Source of the DNA: a virus
Lineage: Duplodnaviria > Heunggongvirae > Uroviricota > Caudoviricetes
DNA: 43,535 nt
Virus record (IMG/VR): IMGVR_UViG_2740892272_000004
Reading direction: 5' to 3' (one strand)
Position 1 is the first letter of the stretch, and each line of letters opens with the position of its first letter. The position numbers and the translations under genes were made by a program. Below, piece by piece: positions 6,605 to 31,129 of the stretch. Under the pieces are notes generated by a model. That model saw only the letters and a list, made by a program, of their open reading frames with translations. It was not told where the DNA came from and made no database searches.

Positions 6605-8659
6605 TTACGCGTTATTCACTTCCACCACGATACTGTCAATCAGTACCGGGTAAGTCGCATTTTTAGTGATATCGGTCACGCGCAACTTGTCTGCCGTAAA
6701 CGTGCCGACCGGAGACTGCGACAGCATGAATGGTGTCCCGTCCTTACCATCAATGACCGGCGTCACCTCAATACTGTTGTTACCGGCAAAACGGAAGCCC
6801 AGCGTATGCCATTCGTTATTAAATGCGCCGAATGACCCCAGCTTCGTGTTCTGCGCCGTGTTTCCTTTGTGATACATCACGTTAAGGTCTGTGGCATCGC
6901 TCTGTACGTAGAACGATGCCAGCAGGTTATGACCGGCATTTCCTTCCAGAGTAACCCCTTGCGGCAGGGCAGAAACCGGCCAGTACAGCGCCAGTGCGTA
7001 CTGATTAGCCGTAAGCGCGCCATCGAGTTTAAAACGACAACTGACAAGACCACCTTTACCCAGCAGGTCCGCACCATTACCAGCATCATGCTCAAGGTAC
7101 CAGGGGGCTCTTCCTGTTTCCTTGGTCAGTTTCATTGCCTTACCCCCGCTGGCTCCGGCATCATCCACGATTTGAGCCTTGCCACCTCCGGCAGCCCAAC
7201 CCTGTGGTGTCAACCGTCCTTCAGACTCAGATGCCCGGTAAGCAAATAGCGTACTCATCGTCGTGGTGTCTGCGGGTGGCGTGGACGGTTTTGATGGTGT
7301 ATCAGGTGACGGCTTCTCATCCGGTGGTGTCACGGTCTGCCCACGCATCAGTTCAGCCGTGCGCCCTGCATGGAGCATAATAGCTGAGGCCAGACGGTCT
7401 GAAATGACGCCCCTGCGTGCCCATGAGCTGAAATGGCTGTCACGCTGTGTCGAAACAAAACTGCCCTGGGTTCGGGATGCTGCACCGTAATACCCGACAG
7501 CCACAATATCCGGGTCTTCCGCCGGAGCATTCGTTGGCGTGCTCTGTCCATTCTCATCCGTCAGGAACGGTACAAAGAAAATTTTCTGTGCTTCCTTGCC
7601 TTTGTAGCCACCGTATACTGCCTCATATTTATCGGTGCCAGCGTTTTTCCAGTAATACGTGGTATCACCGCAAATCCACGGCACCGTGGTGGCATTTCCA
7701 CTCACGCACTGCGCAGCAAGCGGAGCCAGGTCAGTTCTGAACTGCTGAACCATGGCCGTGAATAAACTATTATGCTGCTGGCTTCCTGAGGCAAGGTCTG
7801 CCTCTCCCTGCATCCAGACCACAGCCAGAAGTTTGTTTTTCGGGTTTTTCGCCAGCGCGACTTTGGTGCGGCTTACCAGGTCCTGATACAGAGGTTTACC
7901 GGCCCCCCAGCGTGAAGAATCAGCGGAAGCACCGCTGGCCTCACTGAATGAGCCGTCGGCTCCAGTGGTGAATGCTGACCCGCCACGACAACAGGGCACC
8001 AGAAGTATCCCGGCATTCTGTGGGATATAGGGAAGCAGTTTTTTGGCAATATGCAACCCCTGACCGACAGTCCCGTACTGGCCTTTTGCCAGATCAGCTT
8101 TCGGGTGGTTTATCCCGCTCATATCCTGAACATCATGCAGGCAGTGGTCTGCCGGAATGATGTCGTTGTATGTACACGACGTACCGTTGGGCGTTACCGT
8201 ACTGCGGCGTGCCAGTTGCTTAATGCGTGGGTCCGGGCGGTCAAACGAATCCGGTAACGGCAGCCCCTCGCCGTAGGCCATGCCATTTGACTGACCCGCG
8301 AGAATGACAACAAAGTAATATTCCGGCTCTGAACTGCTGCCATTCGTGCTACCGGAAGGCCCGGCGTTATCCGGTGCATTCCAGTCGGAGGGCGTGAGCG
8401 TTCCGGCCACGTCAGATGTGATTGGAATGATGCCAGTCACGCCTGAACTGGTGATTTCTGCACTGGGATTACCGGATACCGGCATTACCCATAATGGCTC
8501 TTTCGTGCTGAAGCGGATCACGCAGTCTGCGAAGGTGATCCCCCCTTTATTACCCGAAGGGCGGAAAGGGCTTTCAATAAATGCCACCGTGCCACCGGCA
8601 ACCTTGACTGAAAACTCTCCGGGCATGGCGGAGAGCATTTTCCACTTGGAGTCTGACAT
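6605..8659 (-). CDS. Multi-domain sialate-O-acetylesterase-like (SASA/SGNH hydrolase) protein, NanS-p-like: N-terminal region, esterase core, Pro/Thr-rich linker, C-terminal lectin-like beta domain
   Basis: Contains the GQSN catalytic-serine block (VILAGQSNGMAYGEG) and the W-x-Q-G-E-x-D block (VVWMQGEADLASG) typical of the sialic-acid-specific 9-O-acetylesterase family; linker PDEKPSPDTPSKPSTPPADTTT; 684 aa. Confidence 0.75.
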   Translation of the reverse strand: MSDSKWKMLSAMPGEFSVKVAGGTVAFIESPFRPSGNKGGITFADCVIRFSTKEPLWVMPVSGNPSAEITSSGVTGIIPITSDVAGTLTPSDWNAPDNAGPSGSTNGSSSEPEYYFVVILAGQSNGMAYGEGLPLPDSFDRPDPRIKQLARRSTVTPNGTSCTYNDIIPADHCLHDVQDMSGINHPKADLAKGQYGTVGQGLHIAKKLLPYIPQNAGILLVPCCRGGSAFTTGADGSFSEASGASADSSRWGAGKPLYQDLVSRTKVALAKNPKNKLLAVVWMQGEADLASGSQQHNSLFTAMVQQFRTDLAPLAAQCVSGNATTVPWICGDTTYYWKNAGTDKYEAVYGGYKGKEAQKIFFVPFLTDENGQSTPTNAPAEDPDIVAVGYYGAASRTQGSFVSTQRDSHFSSWARRGVISDRLASAIMLHAGRTAELMRGQTVTPPDEKPSPDTPSKPSTPPADTTTMSTLFAYRASESEGRLTPQGWAAGGGKAQIVDDAGASGGKAMKLTKETGRAPWYLEHDAGNGADLLGKGGLVSCRFKLDGALTANQYALALYWPVSALPQGVTLEGNAGHNLLASFYVQSDATDLNVMYHKGNTAQNTKLGSFGAFNNEWHTLGFRFAGNNSIEVTPVIDGKDGTPFMLSQSPVGTFTADKLRVTDITKNATYPVLIDSIVVEVNNA

Positions 8660-8744: not shown

Positions 8745-9317
8745 TCACGGTACTTTTGGTGACGGAGCTGGTGAGGCAGGAAAATAACGATAAAGGGTGG
8801 AAAGGCCAATATCAAATATCAGTGCGATTTGTTTACGGGACTCGCCATTAGCCAGCAAACGGGCGATTTGCTCCCGCTCTTTCTCTGTCAGTTTCTGAGG
8901 TCTGCCGCCATGACGCCCCTGAGCACGGGCAGCAGCAAGACCCGCGCGTGTACGTTCAATAATGAGTTCCCGCTCCATTTCCGCCAGCGCGCCCATTATA
9001 TGGAAAAAGAAACGTCCCATGGGAGTGGATGTATCAATATTGTCCGTAATGCTGCGGAAGTTAACGCCGCGTTGCCGGAGTTCTTCTGTTAAAAGGACAA
9101 GGTGCTGCATACTGCGTCCAAGGCGATCCAGTTTCCAGACCAGCAGGGTATCCCCTGGCCGGAGTCGCTTTAATGCGCGTTTAAGTCCGGGACGCTCCCT
9201 TGTCTTACCGCTTATTCTGTCTTCGAAAAACAGCTCACATCCTGCACATTCCAGCGCATTTCTTTGTAGCGCCGTATTCTGGTCATTTGTTGACACCCTG
9301 ATATACCCAATCAGCAT
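8745..9317 (-). CDS. gin: Gin-family serine DNA invertase
   Basis: Translation MLIGYIRVSTNDQNTALQRNALECAGCELFFEDRISGKT...GRSMQHL...FHIMGALAEMERELIIERT... is near-identical in pattern to Mu Gin / Hin / Cin, with the catalytic Ser in RVST. Confidence 0.95.
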   Translation of the reverse strand: MLIGYIRVSTNDQNTALQRNALECAGCELFFEDRISGKTRERPGLKRALKRLRPGDTLLVWKLDRLGRSMQHLVLLTEELRQRGVNFRSITDNIDTSTPMGRFFFHIMGALAEMERELIIERTRAGLAAARAQGRHGGRPQKLTEKEREQIARLLANGESRKQIALIFDIGLSTLYRYFPASPAPSPKVP

Positions 9318-25306: not shown

Positions 25307-25427
25307 ATTGCCTCCGCATAAAGGATGAATATAAAATAAACAGGCGGTCAGTGTACGCTTAACTGGTAAAGTCGGTGCCTGCCTCCGGGTGGATCATGTA
25401 TGCGGGTTCGACCCCCGCCACTGACCG

Positions 25428-26759
25428 TTAATCAATTTGTCCTTCCAGCACCTCAAGCATTCCGCCCCGGATATCCGATTTCAGCTTATCCATATTGATA
25501 ACCCGGTAAGCATTCACAATCACATCCAGTTTGTCGGGCTGACGTTTCAGACTGTACGGTGCATTAACGGCAATCTGCACACTGCCATCCTGATTTTCCA
25601 CGATATACATCAGATTGTTGTGCCGTTTGTCCCACAGTACCGCTTTTGGCCTTGCCAGCATTGCCGGTAAGCGCCCGAAGTCCTCCGGCGTCAGAGCGAT
25701 GCCGTCATTCTGATGTTTCACACTGTCCGCATGGAGCACATTTTTACCGCTCATCGCCAGCAGGCGGGCCGGTGGCGTTCCCGTCCGGCTTTCCACTGCC
25801 TGCGCAATGCTTTCAGTCATAAAGCCCAGCGTGCGGATATCGTTACCACCTCGCCGGGTCTGCATGATGTTTTTTGCCCAGATGCGGAACGCCAGCTGCC
25901 GCTCCGGGCTGTTGTTCATCTCCTGAACCACCATTTCCCGTAACGCCGGGCTTTTCACCTCGATCAGTTTGCGGATCAGCGCCTGGTCTGTGCCGAACGC
26001 TGCCGAGCCGGGGTTATATGACCAGCCCACATCCGGTGTCATGGTTCTGGCGCCATCTGAATATGTGGTCACCGGCATTTCTCTGACTTCTCCGGTCTGT
26101 TTATCCACGCCAGCCTCAACATTGCGGGTGGAGAGATGATCCTCACCGGATGAAACGGATAACCCCATTGCATCCAGACGGGCCTGAGACAATGGCCGCA
26201 CACGGCAGCGGCAGTTCCAGCCATTGGGCGGGTAGTGTGTTTTCCAGAACGGATCGTCATAGCGGAATACCAGACCGTTAAGGGCGGAATGCGACGGGCG
26301 GGTACGGCTGTCCATGACCGCCACATACTGCCAGAACGGATGCGTGTCCGTGTTGTTCATCATCTGCGTGTAACGCCCGGCATTGTAAGCCACACGGGTG
26401 TTCACGTTGTAAATCAGCGCCAGACGACGGGGACTGCCCTGCTGCACTTCTTCCGCGTTACCGTCGCTGTCCACCACAATCTGCTTTCCCCACCATCCCA
26501 GCTTTTGCAGGCGTGGCGTCAGTGTGCGGATAAATTCTTTCTGTGAAATCCCCTCATCAATGGCCCGCTGCACTTCGGCCTGTAATGTGGTTACCACATC
26601 CAGCCGTGCCGTTTTTGCTGCCGTGAATGAGCGGGCATGAACATCCGCGTCTGTTTCGAACCAGTTCCAGCTGATATGCGCCCCTTTGGCGCGGAAGTAT
26701 GCCACCGTCTCTTTTGAGGGAAGCGTGGCGGCATAACCTAAATCAATCCCCTGAGCCAT
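25428..26759 (-). CDS. Head morphogenesis protein (Mu F-like)
   Basis: 443 aa immediately downstream of the portal gene. Confidence 0.7.
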   Translation of the reverse strand: MAQGIDLGYAATLPSKETVAYFRAKGAHISWNWFETDADVHARSFTAAKTARLDVVTTLQAEVQRAIDEGISQKEFIRTLTPRLQKLGWWGKQIVVDSDGNAEEVQQGSPRRLALIYNVNTRVAYNAGRYTQMMNNTDTHPFWQYVAVMDSRTRPSHSALNGLVFRYDDPFWKTHYPPNGWNCRCRVRPLSQARLDAMGLSVSSGEDHLSTRNVEAGVDKQTGEVREMPVTTYSDGARTMTPDVGWSYNPGSAAFGTDQALIRKLIEVKSPALREMVVQEMNNSPERQLAFRIWAKNIMQTRRGGNDIRTLGFMTESIAQAVESRTGTPPARLLAMSGKNVLHADSVKHQNDGIALTPEDFGRLPAMLARPKAVLWDKRHNNLMYIVENQDGSVQIAVNAPYSLKRQPDKLDVIVNAYRVINMDKLKSDIRGGMLEVLEGQID

Positions 26760-28332
26760 CCAGCATCCCCTTCATTTCCGCAGCAAACATGGCATCACTG
26801 AGCAGCGTCATCAGGCGGGAATCATCCATTTCACGGTAAAGGGCAGGCAGGTCTGCCAGTGCCTCCGCCAGCCCCCGCGTTCTGATGACATCAATGACCG
26901 GCTCCAGCACCGGATCGATGGCCTCCTGTAAGCGGCGGGCAGGCACCGCGTCCCCCATGTCGTCCAGTTCATCACGCGGCGTGTTTTTCGCTTCCGGCAG
27001 TCGGGCTGAAAGCGCCGTCTGTTCTGTCTTTTCCTGTTTTTCCGGTAGCGTTTCCCTGTCAGGCATGGCCGGTTCATTACTGCTCTGACGGACACGGAAT
27101 ATGGCTTCACCGGGCGTGGGCTGTGGAATACCGGTCTGATCCCGTACCCAGGGATCAGGAATATCCATCCCCGCACTGAGTTGCATCACCGCACTGGCTA
27201 TTTTGGTGATATCCCCCGGTTCTTTGGTCTGGAAACAGATACGCGGCAGGCGACGGATATCAATGGCGTGGGCGGTGTTCAGGGCATACAGCGGATACAC
27301 CAGATCGCGGTTCAGGGTTGCAGCCAGCTGGCGTAAATCAGAATCCCTGATTTCCCGGCGCACCTCGTTATGCACCTCACCCAGCGAGCGCGCGCCTTTG
27401 TCTCCGGCTTCTGTGGTCAGCGTGCCGCCGAGTATTGCTTTGGAGATGGAACGCTCACCCCACGAAATCATGGTTTCAAACGGATCGGCCTGACCGTTCG
27501 CTGCCGCCTGAAACTCCAGCGACATCCCGGCCGGGATGATCCCGCCTGTACGTCGCCCGATATCCATCACCGCCCGCATCAGGGCACTTTTCTGCTCCGG
27601 TGTTGCCCCGGACGGGTATTTCCCGACCTTCATTGGCAGGCCGTACACCTCCAGAAATTCCGCCAGATCGCGCACGGAATAGTTTTTGAAAATGAACGGC
27701 CAGATAAGCGTTCTGACAAGCCCCGTCGCACCACCGTAGCCGGTGCGTGAACGCGACTGATGCACTATCCAGCCAAAGGGCTGAAACGCCACCCCGGCAT
27801 GGCTGCCGTCACGCAGCCGCAGTTCGCTCAAATCATCCGGGTTAAGGCAGAAATGCCCGCTGTCACGCCAGCGGATGGCGCGGATGATGTGCATTTTACC
27901 GAGCATCCCGTGCTCAATTTCCATGCAGGAATAGCCCTTCAGGATGGCATCCGTGGCGTCAAACAGCATGGCATCAAACCAGTCTGCGGAATGCAGATAT
28001 TCGTCGAGCATTTCCGCGTCCTTTTTCTCATTCGCGCTGGCGTTCGGTGGCGGCTCAATACTCCATGGCACCCCCTGAATGGCAAGACGTCGCTTGCCCA
28101 GCTCCGCAAAAAGGTGGGTGTCCTTTTCTTCAATATCAGCGGCCAGATCGGACTGGGCAATCAGATCGCCACGTTCAGCCCCGCGAAGGCACTGCGCCGC
28201 CCGGTTCGGGGTGATACCCGAAGCCGGATGTTCAATATAACGGCTGGCAATCTGCGGAATATCCAGCGCGGCACTCTGCATCTCCGGGTCAAAGGAGAAA
28301 GGTTTTCCGTCAGTATCAATGATGCGTCCCAC
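26743..28332 (-). CDS. Portal protein (Mu gp29-like)
   Basis: 529 aa, directly downstream of the large terminase gene. Confidence 0.8.
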   Translation of the reverse strand: MGRIIDTDGKPFSFDPEMQSAALDIPQIASRYIEHPASGITPNRAAQCLRGAERGDLIAQSDLAADIEEKDTHLFAELGKRRLAIQGVPWSIEPPPNASANEKKDAEMLDEYLHSADWFDAMLFDATDAILKGYSCMEIEHGMLGKMHIIRAIRWRDSGHFCLNPDDLSELRLRDGSHAGVAFQPFGWIVHQSRSRTGYGGATGLVRTLIWPFIFKNYSVRDLAEFLEVYGLPMKVGKYPSGATPEQKSALMRAVMDIGRRTGGIIPAGMSLEFQAAANGQADPFETMISWGERSISKAILGGTLTTEAGDKGARSLGEVHNEVRREIRDSDLRQLAATLNRDLVYPLYALNTAHAIDIRRLPRICFQTKEPGDITKIASAVMQLSAGMDIPDPWVRDQTGIPQPTPGEAIFRVRQSSNEPAMPDRETLPEKQEKTEQTALSARLPEAKNTPRDELDDMGDAVPARRLQEAIDPVLEPVIDVIRTRGLAEALADLPALYREMDDSRLMTLLSDAMFAAEMKGMLDGSGD

Positions 28333-29999
28333 TACCAGCCCCCCCGATCAAATTCATGATATGCCTCATCGTCATCACGATAACCGCCCTCCATTGCCCG
28401 CGACCGCTCCTGTAGCGCCTGACAGGCTGATTCATCCAGGATGAAGCCCTCCATGTATGACGCCCGGTTTGCCATACAGAGCGCCACGGCAAAATCACCA
28501 TGGCGGCGGGCGTTCGCAGCCGTTGCGTTCTGGTCCTTCGTGCGCCCCTTGTCGATTTGCGGGATACCATTCACTACCTTCACATGGCGCAAATCATCAA
28601 GCGTGGTCTGATGGCGGGCGACGAGGATATTCTGATCTTCAAACTCGGCTTTCAGTTTTGGCATCCACTCGCCGTACCACTTCGGCGACAACATCACGCA
28701 GTCGATGATGTCCGGGCCAAAGGCCAGCAGTGCGGCCTCTGCCAGATAGCCGCCGTTACCGGTGGCGTCGAACGCCGCACCGACCAGCGCCGGAACGCGG
28801 GTCAGGATGTACATCATCACCTGTTCCTGCTGGGCATACGGCAGGTTGCGCAGCTCCACGCGAAACACCTCGCGCTTTGCCAGGGATTCGGTGATTTCCA
28901 GCAGCACAAAGCAGGACAGGTCACCGGTGCGGGCAAAGTCTTCCCCGAAGCTGAAGCGGGAACGGGGATTTAATTTCTCTAAAAGCGGTTTTAAATGTTC
29001 TTCACACCAGGTTAAAACTTCCGATTCACGCAGCCATGCGGCACGGCTGATGAAGTTGTCCGGGGCTTCAAACGTCAGAATCGGGATGTCGCGGATCATC
29101 GCCATTTCAATAAGCGCGTGGGGGATATAGGCACCGCCGGATTTTTTCGGGATACAGCCGTATTCCTCGTCGGCATCCTCACGGGTCGGGGCGTTTTTGT
29201 AGAGATCATCACGCCATTTCTGCTCGCTTTCCGGTGACCATTCCTGATCGGTGACGTAACAGATACGACGGTACAGCCCGTCCGCAATGGCATCATCCAG
29301 GGTTATGCGGTGGACGCTGTAATCCTTGCGCCCCTCGCGGGCTTCCTGAATGTACTGATTAAACAGATTATCGACGCCGTTATGCGTGGAGATAATACGC
29401 ACGCGCGCGCCCCACATAGTGAGCGCCATTGCCGCCTTGAGAAGCTCATCCAGTGACTCGTGGAACGCGGCTTCATCAATCACCACATCCCCCTGAAGGC
29501 CGCGCAGGTTTGACGGACGGGAAGACAATGCCTGAATTTTGAATCCACTGTTCGGAAAGCGGATCATGTAGGTCAAAATTTCTTCTTTTTTATCCCGATC
29601 CCAGAATGTCTGCTCATACACATCAGCATCTGCCAGCTGGTTAAAGGCACGGGAGAACAGCGCGCAGGCAGAAATATATTCCAGCGCCATCTCCTGCTTT
29701 GATCCCACATAAAACACATTGCGGCCACCACGACGCTTCGGTTTTGCAGCAGTAATGACGTTACGCCCGGCTTCCGCCCAGGTAAGACCGGTGCGGCGGG
29801 ATTTCTCCGCGATGCAGACCTGACTTTCATCTGCAAACCAGCGGGCCTGATAATCCAGAAACACCGGCATATCACCGGGCAAATCAAGGCTGTCCGGCAC
29901 ATCCACGCCCAGCAGGGCTTTTTCACCTGACAGATCAATTTTGCGGGGAGGCGTCATTTGCATCAGTGAAGGCGACGTTTCTCTGGCTTTGTTCATCAT
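28332..29999 (-). CDS. Terminase large subunit (Mu gp28-like)
   Basis: 555 aa with a Walker-A-like segment (AEKSRRTGLTW) and acidic nuclease-like region. Confidence 0.8.
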   Translation of the reverse strand: MMNKARETSPSLMQMTPPRKIDLSGEKALLGVDVPDSLDLPGDMPVFLDYQARWFADESQVCIAEKSRRTGLTWAEAGRNVITAAKPKRRGGRNVFYVGSKQEMALEYISACALFSRAFNQLADADVYEQTFWDRDKKEEILTYMIRFPNSGFKIQALSSRPSNLRGLQGDVVIDEAAFHESLDELLKAAMALTMWGARVRIISTHNGVDNLFNQYIQEAREGRKDYSVHRITLDDAIADGLYRRICYVTDQEWSPESEQKWRDDLYKNAPTREDADEEYGCIPKKSGGAYIPHALIEMAMIRDIPILTFEAPDNFISRAAWLRESEVLTWCEEHLKPLLEKLNPRSRFSFGEDFARTGDLSCFVLLEITESLAKREVFRVELRNLPYAQQEQVMMYILTRVPALVGAAFDATGNGGYLAEAALLAFGPDIIDCVMLSPKWYGEWMPKLKAEFEDQNILVARHQTTLDDLRHVKVVNGIPQIDKGRTKDQNATAANARRHGDFAVALCMANRASYMEGFILDESACQALQERSRAMEGGYRDDDEAYHEFDRGGW

Positions 30000-30244
30000 G
30001 CTTTACCTGTCAGAATGCTTTTGATTCGGGACTCAAGCTCTTCAGTCATCACGTCCACGCCGCTCAACTCATCAGTGGCAGCCTCTGCCAGCAGCGAATG
30101 CAGTTGTTCCAGGGATATTTCCCCGGCAATGCTGAGTTCAGTCAACTCACGACATACCTTTATGGTTTCAGGAGGTAACTGTGTTGCAAGACTGAATGCT
30201 TTCTGATGGGCACTGCTCATCAGTGAGCGGTTATCTGTTGCCAT
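29996..30244 (-). CDS. Small protein (82 aa) whose C-terminal ~25 aa duplicate the C-terminus of the upstream gp27-like protein
   Basis: C-termini ...TDELSGVDVMTEELESRIKSILTGKA and ...TDELRGVDGMSEQIEFRIRQMLLGKA are paralogous. Confidence 0.4.
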   Translation of the reverse strand: MATDNRSLMSSAHQKAFSLATQLPPETIKVCRELTELSIAGEISLEQLHSLLAEAATDELSGVDVMTEELESRIKSILTGKA

Positions 30245-30254
30245 GATTCACCTC

Positions 30255-30836
30255 CTACGCCTTACCCAGCAGCATCTGCCTGATACGGAATTCGATCTGC
30301 TCGCTCATGCCATCCACGCCGCGCAACTCATCGGTGACCGCATTCGCCATCTCTTCAGCAAATGCGGCCCGGATTTCTTTTTCACGCTTAATGCTGCGCT
30401 CGGCGGCACTTTCTGCACGCTGTGCCGACAGGAGGATGTCCTTAATAAGGCGCATATCCACATCGCTGTCGCTGTTCAGGGATTCGGTGGCGGCACGCAG
30501 ACGGCGGTACATCAGGGCACGGGACATCTCCAGAATCAGTGCCGTGGTTTCACCGGTCGGCTTATCCCCCAGTTCGGCCATCATGGCTTTTGTCTGCTCG
30601 CGTAAATCACGCAGATTACGGGCAATCAGCTCATTACGGGAGGCTTCCCGGCTGATGGCCGCCGGTGAGAGCTGCTGCTCTTCCGGCAGACCTGCTTCAC
30701 GGATCAGACGGTTGATTTCCTCGCGGATCTGGACCTGCGTCAGACGTTTTTCACGCAGCATTTCCAGCAGCGGCTTACGGATGCTGTCGGGGAGCAAATC
30801 CACCTTGCGTACACGGCCACGCGCTGGCTTATCCAT
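30255..30836 (-). CDS. Mu gp27-like protein (putative small terminase / DNA-binding)
   Basis: 193 aa, directly upstream of the large terminase gene. Confidence 0.5.
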   Translation of the reverse strand: MDKPARGRVRKVDLLPDSIRKPLLEMLREKRLTQVQIREEINRLIREAGLPEEQQLSPAAISREASRNELIARNLRDLREQTKAMMAELGDKPTGETTALILEMSRALMYRRLRAATESLNSDSDVDMRLIKDILLSAQRAESAAERSIKREKEIRAAFAEEMANAVTDELRGVDGMSEQIEFRIRQMLLGKA

Positions 30837-30838
30837 CG

Positions 30839-31129
30839 TTACCCCCTTGCGCGTGGTTTCTTCACACCCGGAACGGTGGCGCGGCCTTCCGCCACATCCT
30901 GACCCCGGCCGGTCAGTTCAGCGATGAAATAACCGTTAACAAGCGTGCGCTTACGCACCAGTCCCTGCTCGGCAAGCCAGGCAATGTGGGTATGAACGGT
31001 GTCGCGGGACACGCGGTGACCGTAATCATCCAGGCAGTCCTGAAGCACGGATTCGCCCAGTTCGCCGTTGTAATCCGCCAGCGACCGCAGAATGACAAGA
31101 CGCTGATCTTCAGTAATGAAATCACTCAT
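30839..31129 (-). CDS. Hypothetical protein (Mu gp26 position)
   Basis: 96 aa; synteny only. Confidence 0.4.
   Translation of the reverse strand: MSDFITEDQRLVILRSLADYNGELGESVLQDCLDDYGHRVSRDTVHTHIAWLAEQGLVRKRTLVNGYFIAELTGRGQDVAEGRATVPGVKKPRARG

Follow-up and report, generated by a model that had tools for sequence, protein, structure and literature searches.

In the Pseudomonas Mu-like phage JBD26, the slot between the genes for the small (TerS) and the large (TerL) terminase subunit holds the accessory genes atab (gp30) and tab (gp31), with atab, of 83 amino acids (aa), lying directly after TerS with a 1-base-pair (bp) overlap and tab lying on the opposite strand. A phage with both genes deleted grows normally, and its plaque formation is unimpaired (PMC10884400). 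Here, we describe an 82-aa open reading frame (ORF), called the mini-ORF in the following, in the same slot of the viral record IMGVR_UViG_2740892272_000004, whose whole stretch of 43,535 nucleotides (nt) is referred to as the window. We read the mini-ORF, with a probability of about 0.6, as a chimeric accessory gene in a variable TerS-TerL slot, which would be dispensable for packaging and kept open chiefly for its coupling junction to TerL.

The resemblance to JBD26 concerns position and size: the slot is the same, Atab has 83 and the mini-ORF 82 aa, both genes come right after TerS within the late operon and ahead of TerL, and their junctions are overlapping or coupled. The JBD26 TerS, however, belongs to another family, and Atab is unlike the tail of its own TerS. 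The flexible C-terminal peptides of the TerS proteins gpNu1 (lambda) and gp3 (P22) bind TerL within its N-terminal ~20-60 residues (PMC9611059). By analogy, a comparable contact might exist in Mu-type terminases, where the TerS tail and an N-terminal TerL motif covary; the systems share no homology, and the lambda and P22 peptide does not occur on a second protein. The Rpp protein of phage-inducible chromosomal islands (PMC6739421) offers a parallel, as in both cases a small helical protein could affect TerS-TerL function through protein contacts, but Rpp is satellite-encoded, binds phage TerS instead of TerL, and redirects packaging to the island, whereas the mini-ORF is located in the phage's own late operon.

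The mini-ORF and its C-terminal tail

The window represents a complete Mu-like prophage, which matches one in E. coli strain 102651 at 100% identity and contains transposase A/B, Gam, Mor, lysis, packaging, head, and tail genes. The late genes on the minus strand follow the order gp26-like, gp27, mini-ORF, TerL, and portal. The features around the mini-ORF are the following:

30255..30836, minus strand: gp27, the Mu-type small terminase TerS, 193 aa (Pfam PF11985, Phage_Mu_Gp27, DUF3486, E=3e-33; PHROG 426, "terminase small subunit")
30258..30356, minus strand: gp27 residues 161-193, the resident tail (...TDELRGVDGMSEQIEFRIRQMLLGKA), an allele common to L016/L034-type phages
30250..30256, minus strand: Shine-Dalgarno sequence (SD) AGGAGGT of the mini-ORF, overlapping the gp27 TAG stop and lying 5 nt before the ATG
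29996..30244, minus strand: mini-ORF, 82 aa with an ATG start, taken from the ORF list, its sequence exactly as quoted in the original prediction
30098..30244, minus strand: mini-ORF codons 1-49, predicted N-terminal domain of a small-ORF family, homologous to the tail-less 67-aa protein P0132 (locus L016) and a 65-aa Citrobacter braakii ORF (L023:3590-3787)
29999..30097, minus strand: mini-ORF codons 50-82, a second copy of the type-I gp27 C-terminal tail (hhalign boundaries 50-82 versus 161-193)
28332..29999, minus strand: TerL, the large terminase (PHROG 2), 555 aa from the first ATG
29895..29948, minus strand: TerL residues 18-35, PRKIDLSGEKALLGVDVP, an N-terminal motif present only in TerLs paired with a type-I-tail TerS

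The window gp27 shares 56.5% identity with Mu gp27, which is annotated as "terminase small subunit, also known as D". The mini-ORF corresponds to RefSeq WP_000179787.1, a "hypothetical protein" of E. coli 102651, and starts 10 nt past the gp27 stop on the same strand, while its own stop overlaps the TerL start (ATGA / TGATG). RefSeq places the TerL start 3 nt after the first ATG, where it overlaps the stop of the mini-ORF by 1 nt (TGATG). A read-through fusion of gp27 and the mini-ORF was rejected, as the frames differ and 13 nt separate the first base of the gp27 stop from the mini-ORF ATG.

The original prediction had noticed that the mini-ORF ends in a second copy of the gp27 tail, and this is borne out by every comparison we made. 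A BLASTP alignment of the two proteins matches mini-ORF residues 52-82 to gp27 residues 163-193 without gaps, with 18/31 identical and 24/31 positive positions (E=3e-10 as a single comparison). The hhalign profile-profile comparison aligns residues 50-82 with gp27 161-193 and nothing else (probability 95.8%, E=7e-9). The mini-ORF belongs to the PHROG family phrog_30922 of unknown function, covering profile positions 2-82 with its residues 2-82 (E=6.9e-52), and gp27 cross-matches the same profile at positions 51-82 (E=6e-8). The similarity is confirmed as real, well above chance, and limited to the last ~33 residues. The N-terminal half is not a diverged copy of the gp27 core, which is ruled out by the hhalign alignment covering the tail only, and searches of the window with blastn-short and with tblastn in six frames found no source for it. 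The mini-ORF has no match to Pfam PF11985 at E<=1, and the helix-turn-helix (HTH) and long helical core of gp27 are absent from it.

In the tail, a helix comes to its end and is followed by a loop (SGVDVMT) and then by an amphipathic helix (EELESRIKSILT) at the terminus. The AlphaFold2 (AF2) model of the mini-ORF, with a mean predicted local distance difference test score (pLDDT) of 70, places helices at residues 3-22, 25-39, and 45-60, the third extending into the tail copy, followed by a low-confidence linker and a terminal helix at 68-79. The AF2 model of gp27, of low pLDDT, shows the HTH, long helices, a loop at 172-178, and a terminal helix at 179-189, and thus the same predicted loop-plus-terminal-helix ending. 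A Foldseek search of the PDB with the mini-ORF model found no fold match (best E=1.7), the NCBIfam search returned nothing, and a Pfam HIGH_NTase1 match below the cut-off (E=0.019) was dismissed.

The closest known counterpart of the mini-ORF tail is the C-terminal tail of Mu-type gp27, to which Mu gp27 (D) belongs; mini-ORF residues 50-82 are homologous to residues 161-193 of the window gp27, and the overlap of stop and TerL start is alike. The type-I signature ..DEL.G.D.M.E.LE.RI..IL.GKA is common to the mini-ORF tail and the gp27 proteins of Mu, Salmonella, Vibrio, and Pseudomonas JBD25, and the mini-ORF tail also has the type-I end ..LLGKA and a stop coupled to the TerL start, as expected of a Mu-type TerS tail. 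The mini-ORF differs from gp27 in lacking the HTH and long helical core, and its tail carries four residues unseen in 43 distinct gp27 tails, namely S61, V65, T67, and T79 at positions where these tails have R/H, G, S, and L/M. The G and S replaced by V65 and T67 are strictly invariant in the 43 tails.

A variable slot between gp27 and TerL

A 701-bp junction probe searched against 5,426 complete E. coli genomes matched 231 records, only 25 of which contain the mini-ORF. The remaining ~206 records carry the same prophage type and lack exactly 259 bp, so that the gp27 stop overlaps the TerL ATG. In phage Mu, gp27 is also followed directly by TerL. The 155-bp unique part of the mini-ORF was found in the same 25 E. 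coli genomes at 29 places, always ungapped and annotated as a coding sequence, and at no other E. coli site. The mini-ORF is also intact and ungapped in loci L002-L009, L013, and L014, and neither a stop nor an indel interrupts it in the 25 complete genomes or in roughly 100 sequences from databases, with ATG or GTG starts. Rare frameshifted or internally deleted copies do exist (P0003, P0004, and P0010).

Protein relatives of the mini-ORF form 11 clusters in a word-index search, all from E. coli, and a hidden Markov model search of 1.84 billion representatives gave 4 matches, all from the same slot or family. The GTDB genome scan yielded 7 loci, making the taxonomic survey thin. Three IMG/VR loci (L010-L012) match residues 34-81 at 41% identity. 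They encode tail proteins of high-GC actinophages, and we take the similarity to be due to chance. The 80-aa P0011 has the first 24 residues in common with the mini-ORF, but a deletion or misassembly has connected the ORF with a baseplate gene on its contig, which is uninformative.

The slot is occupied in different ways among related loci:

Type A: no ORF (E. coli Sp18-like, Salmonella-like, and Vibrio injensis loci, and Mu)
Type B: an 82-aa ORF with tail (window type)
Type C: the same gp27 tail and TAGGAGGTGAATCATG junction, the 67-aa P0132 without a gp27-like tail, a 120-nt spacer, and a TerL with a different N-terminus (L016)
Type D: a deletion derivative of type C, in which only the SD and ATGGCAACAGA are kept (L034:3583-3614)
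Type E: a 65-aa ORF coupled to TerL in Citrobacter braakii (L023 and L054; L023:3590-3787)
Type F: an unrelated 87-aa ORF (L053:3590-3853), with only the first eight codons, MQ(Q/R)KYDWY, in common with type E

The E. coli CI5 match H70 is consistent with type D. This strain (NZ_CP011018.1) has two Mu-like prophages with different junction alleles, type A (H16, 4854174-4854615) and the D-like remnant (H70, 4294273-4294490), and in other genomes the window-type segment occurs 2-3 times.

An alignment of the mini-ORF with P0132 and the Citrobacter ORF extends over their first ~55 residues. P0132 matches only the N-terminal part of phrog_30922 (positions 2-55, E=3e-14), as does the Citrobacter ORF (positions 5-48, E=7e-3). 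Since these two tail-less proteins match the family only N-terminally, the N-terminal domain represents an older small-ORF family, to which the tail is a window-type addition. Judging from the compared junctions, the gp27-TerL slot of enterobacterial Mu-like prophages is a variable accessory slot, as is known for Pseudomonas Mu-like phages (tab/atab).

Probable recombinant origin of the mini-ORF

Between the window and L016, no difference is seen in the gp27 tail, its stop, the SD, and the first codons of the small ORF, and the AGGAGGT junction between gp27 and the small ORF is identical in L016 and L034. Further on, the identity between the window and L016 is ~80% up to codon ~35, after which the sequences are unalignable until TerL codon ~19. 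Allele A provides the match for the right-hand side: the mini-ORF from codon ~48-53 onwards, together with its stop and ~60 nt at the 5' end of TerL, can be aligned with the 3' end of the allele-A gp27 and the start of its TerL. Of 45 distinct gp27 tails, the one closest to the mini-ORF tail is that of E. coli allele A, with 22/31 identical positions.

The proportion of synonymous differences (pS), calculated for the tails over the last 30 codons, was as follows:

gp27 tail versus mini-ORF tail: 0.69
allele-A tail versus mini-ORF tail: 0.43
allele-A tail versus window gp27 tail: 0.76
gp27 body, allele A versus window: 0.15

As the two tails differ by a pS of 0.69 while the gp27 bodies differ by 0.15, the tails are old alleles united by recombination of two phage types instead of the products of a recent in-situ duplication. 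One parent would have combined a gp27 ending in a tail of its own with the AGGAGGT junction and an ORF of ~65 aa, as in the L016 and Citrobacter types, and the other the ordinary layout with the gp27 tail coupled directly to TerL. The joint would lie at codon ~50 of the small ORF and at codon ~161 of the gp27 from the second parent. The recombinant would have a complete gp27 and a small protein with a further, allelic TerS tail at its end, and after it the TerL 5' end of the second parent. This two-parent origin is well supported by the breakpoints and the tail divergence. Placed between conserved genes, the locus resembles other cases of phage mosaicism in its presence/absence polymorphism, its sharp homology breakpoints, and the alternative unrelated ORFs in one slot; it differs in that the joint lies within two coding regions, apparently forming an in-frame fusion in which a functional peptide has been taken over from the essential gene next to it. 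Should the chimera reading be correct, the mini-ORF is a clean natural case of recombination at a phage gene junction making a new small protein by capture of an essential neighbour's interaction peptide.

The 5' half of the allele-A tail is like the gp27 tail and its 3' half like the mini-ORF tail, with the shared GCGGCGTGGA as a possible crossover site. Loss of the ORF through recombination between its two tails is thus possible. The related idea that the tail of L001 is a hybrid of both tails and that allele A arose by deletion was set aside as an account of the origin, because the allele-A tail equally represents the family consensus.

A candidate TerS-TerL contact

The tail is the best-conserved part of gp27. 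The gp27 of Pseudomonas JBD25, with 32% identity overall, ends in RGSDGMSEQLENRIRGILLGKA, and this phage has a tail and TerL motif near-identical to those of the window type. Across 13 lineages (including loci L023, L024, L028, L029, L063, and L066-L070), the gp27 tail type covaries perfectly with the TerL N-terminal motif. A type I tail (..RG.DG[MI]SE.LE.RI...LLGKA) is always accompanied by a TerL with PRKI[DN]L..E...LGVD and a type II tail (..ILGI[AV]) always by a TerL without this motif.

We infer that the gp27 tail and the TerL PRKIDL..LGVD segment are a candidate TerS-TerL contact module of Mu-type terminases, keeping in mind that the two coding segments are adjacent and that co-inheritance alone could produce the covariation. 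A sequence search of the PDB with gp27 found no meaningful match (best E=0.35, to unrelated proteins) and no solved Mu-type terminase structure. The co-conservation and co-inheritance of tail and motif in Mu-like phages of Escherichia, Salmonella, Vibrio, and Pseudomonas make this a concrete candidate contact, which may be more useful for terminase biology than the mini-ORF.

Selective constraint on the mini-ORF

We compared ten collinear loci without indels over 2,505 bp, for which the dN/dS ratios are the following:

gp27: 0.02-0.05
TerL: 0.06-0.29
mini-ORF: 0.10-0.56

In the most divergent pair, the window and L013, codons 16-82 of the mini-ORF evolve with an omega of ~0.5, which is not different from 1 (p=0.19). 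Their synonymous rate equals that of the neighbouring genes, and their non-synonymous rate is 6.8x that of gp27 and TerL (p=2e-4). Codons 2-15 form a mosaic patch. One variant, P0006, carries L70P in the terminal helix. The fast change at the protein level and the atypical tail residues fit relaxed constraint. The four unusual residues could also reflect a one-off specialisation, being fixed within the family.

Possible function of the mini-ORF

The case for an accessory gene that is not needed for packaging draws on its distribution, with the ORF present in 25 complete E. coli genomes, missing from ~206 of the same prophage type, and missing from Mu. Because of its strong SD and a stop overlapping the TerL start, the mini-ORF is probably translated from the late operon. 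The reading frame would be kept mainly since its 3' end carries a translational-coupling junction by which the start codon of TerL is supplied with ribosomes, the captured tail would be under relaxed constraint, and any docking on the PRKIDL..LGVD segment of TerL would be residual or modulatory and not essential. Practical consequences would be small unless the mini-protein binds TerL.

Several observations weigh against this reading. The ORF is intact and free of indels in the complete genomes and database members mentioned above, and its four unusual tail residues are fixed in the family, as expected of a functional, specialised tail. A dN/dS below 1 (0.1-0.56) allows for purifying selection, with counts too small to decide. 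The coupling to TerL is deduced from nothing but the overlap of stop and start. A parent with the exact mini-ORF tail was not found, the allele-A tail reaching only 22/31, so the tail donor is a deduced one.

The original prediction had proposed that the mini-protein competes for or regulates the TerS-TerL interaction. In this form, the captured tail would act as a mimic that docks on the TerL N-terminal segment and competes with or tunes the assembly of gp27 and TerL, for example in the timing of packaging or in the exclusion of TerS from a related, co-resident Mu-like phage. The conservation of the gp27 tail from E. coli to Pseudomonas JBD25, its covariation with the TerL motif in 13 lineages, and the binding of TerL N-termini by the TerS C-termini of lambda and P22 (PMC9611059) are all in line with this. 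The mini-ORF tail moreover retains the DEL-G-D-M-E-LE-RI-L-GKA positions and a hydrophobic face of L70/I74/I77/L78, is predicted to follow a flexible linker with a terminal helix as in gp27, and is inherited as one block with the TerL N-terminus. Some genomes also have 2-3 copies or two alleles of such prophages. The prediction had itself taken absence or disruption in otherwise intact relatives as speaking against such a role, and the ORF turned out to be absent from Mu and ~206 of the 231 E. coli records and deleted in L034. Two strictly invariant tail positions are changed (G to V and S to T), in addition to R to S and L to T, the mini-ORF dN/dS of ~0.5 contrasts with 0.02-0.05 for gp27, an L70P variant exists, and the covariation may reflect the adjacency of the two coding segments. 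As the ORF is absent from most relatives and its tail residues are atypical, the decoy or regulator idea is weakened, and we consider a TerS-tail mimic unlikely.

A more specific version, in which the mini-protein is a working decoy or adaptor whose tail, captured and then specialised (S61/V65/T67/T79), docks on the co-inherited TerL segment, seems quite unlikely. If true, a three-helix protein would adjust the assembly of the terminase or distinguish the terminases of Mu-like prophages residing in one cell, and would represent a phage-encoded regulator of the phage's own packaging motor, made by capture of an essential neighbour's peptide.

By analogy to anti-Tab, the mini-ORF might also encode a small accessory protein with a defence-related or anti-defence role, in which the N-terminal three-helix domain is functional and the tail is a passenger or localisation tag. 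Position, size, and operon logic are as in the JBD26 Atab, which follows TerS directly with its 1-bp overlap and is dispensable together with tab (PMC10884400). The hypervariable slot with its several unrelated or diverged small ORFs, the mosaic patch at codons 2-15, the fast protein-level rate, and the orphan status of the family (4 matches among 1.84 billion representatives) agree with such a role. The blastp search with JBD26 Atab and Tab, however, found no match at E<=10 to the mini-ORF, P0132, the Citrobacter 65-aa ORF, or the L053 87-aa ORF, PADLOC-DB gave no match at E<=1 for the mini-ORF and its three slot relatives, and no fold match was obtained. A tab-like gene on the opposite strand of the mini-ORF was not found either: there are two antisense ORFs only, both inside the mini-ORF and neither with a promoter-like site at 29700-30900, and both were rejected as Tab analogues, one being broken by stops in L013 and the other being Ser-rich and of low complexity. 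We regard this role as very unlikely.

A simple tandem duplication, with the 3' end of gp27 copied in situ and the copy now decaying as a non-functional remnant (untranslated or a pseudogene), would fit the two tail copies lying 259 bp apart in the same orientation, the near-neutral rate, and the rare frameshifted or internally deleted copies, but has only a slim chance given tails saturated at synonymous sites (0.69) on a backbone of 0.15, nearest relatives of the two tails in different phage lineages, N-terminal 50 aa that are not gp27-derived and have tail-less homologues elsewhere, and a strong SD and start codons with a frame free of stops and indels in the surveyed sequences. The fallback of the original prediction, a duplication remnant, stands as far as the paralogy of the tails is concerned and does not hold for an in-situ duplicate, the ORF being a member of a small-ORF family joined to an anciently diverged gp27-tail/TerL allele.

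Neighbouring genes and further observations

The genes on either side of the terminase block are the following:

30839-31129, minus strand: gp26-like gene, a winged-helix protein of the NCBIfam VpaChn25_0724 family (E=3e-34)
26743-28332, minus strand: portal

The gp26-like gene adjoins gp27 also in Mu and in the Vibrio and Pseudomonas relatives. In one assembly, a Logan contig encoding the 291-aa P0013, the gp26-like gene and gp27 form one ORF, through loss of the stop codon or a sequencing error; P0013 was considered as a gp27-mini-ORF fusion and rejected, being a gp26-gp27 fusion.

RefSeq annotates a "tRNA-OTHER" at window position ~25347-25434 (NZ_CP189662.1, 3718062-3718149), between the virion morphogenesis and minor head genes. 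ARAGORN predicts no tRNA in the whole window.

The window also encodes a 571-aa type III effector of the IpaH/SspH type (301-2016, plus strand) with LRR_TTSS and NEL E3-ligase domains (E=7e-77). It lies outside the Mu-like prophage on the side of the Mom end, from which it is separated by tail-fibre-like ORFs (2196-3942). Among the minus-strand genes at 4379-5311, 6605-8659, and 8745-9317, a Mom-family gene and a Gin-like invertase gene (Resolvase and HTH_7) flank a 684-aa SASA acetylesterase/DUF6645 protein, which may be prophage cargo or a tail-fibre-associated enzyme.

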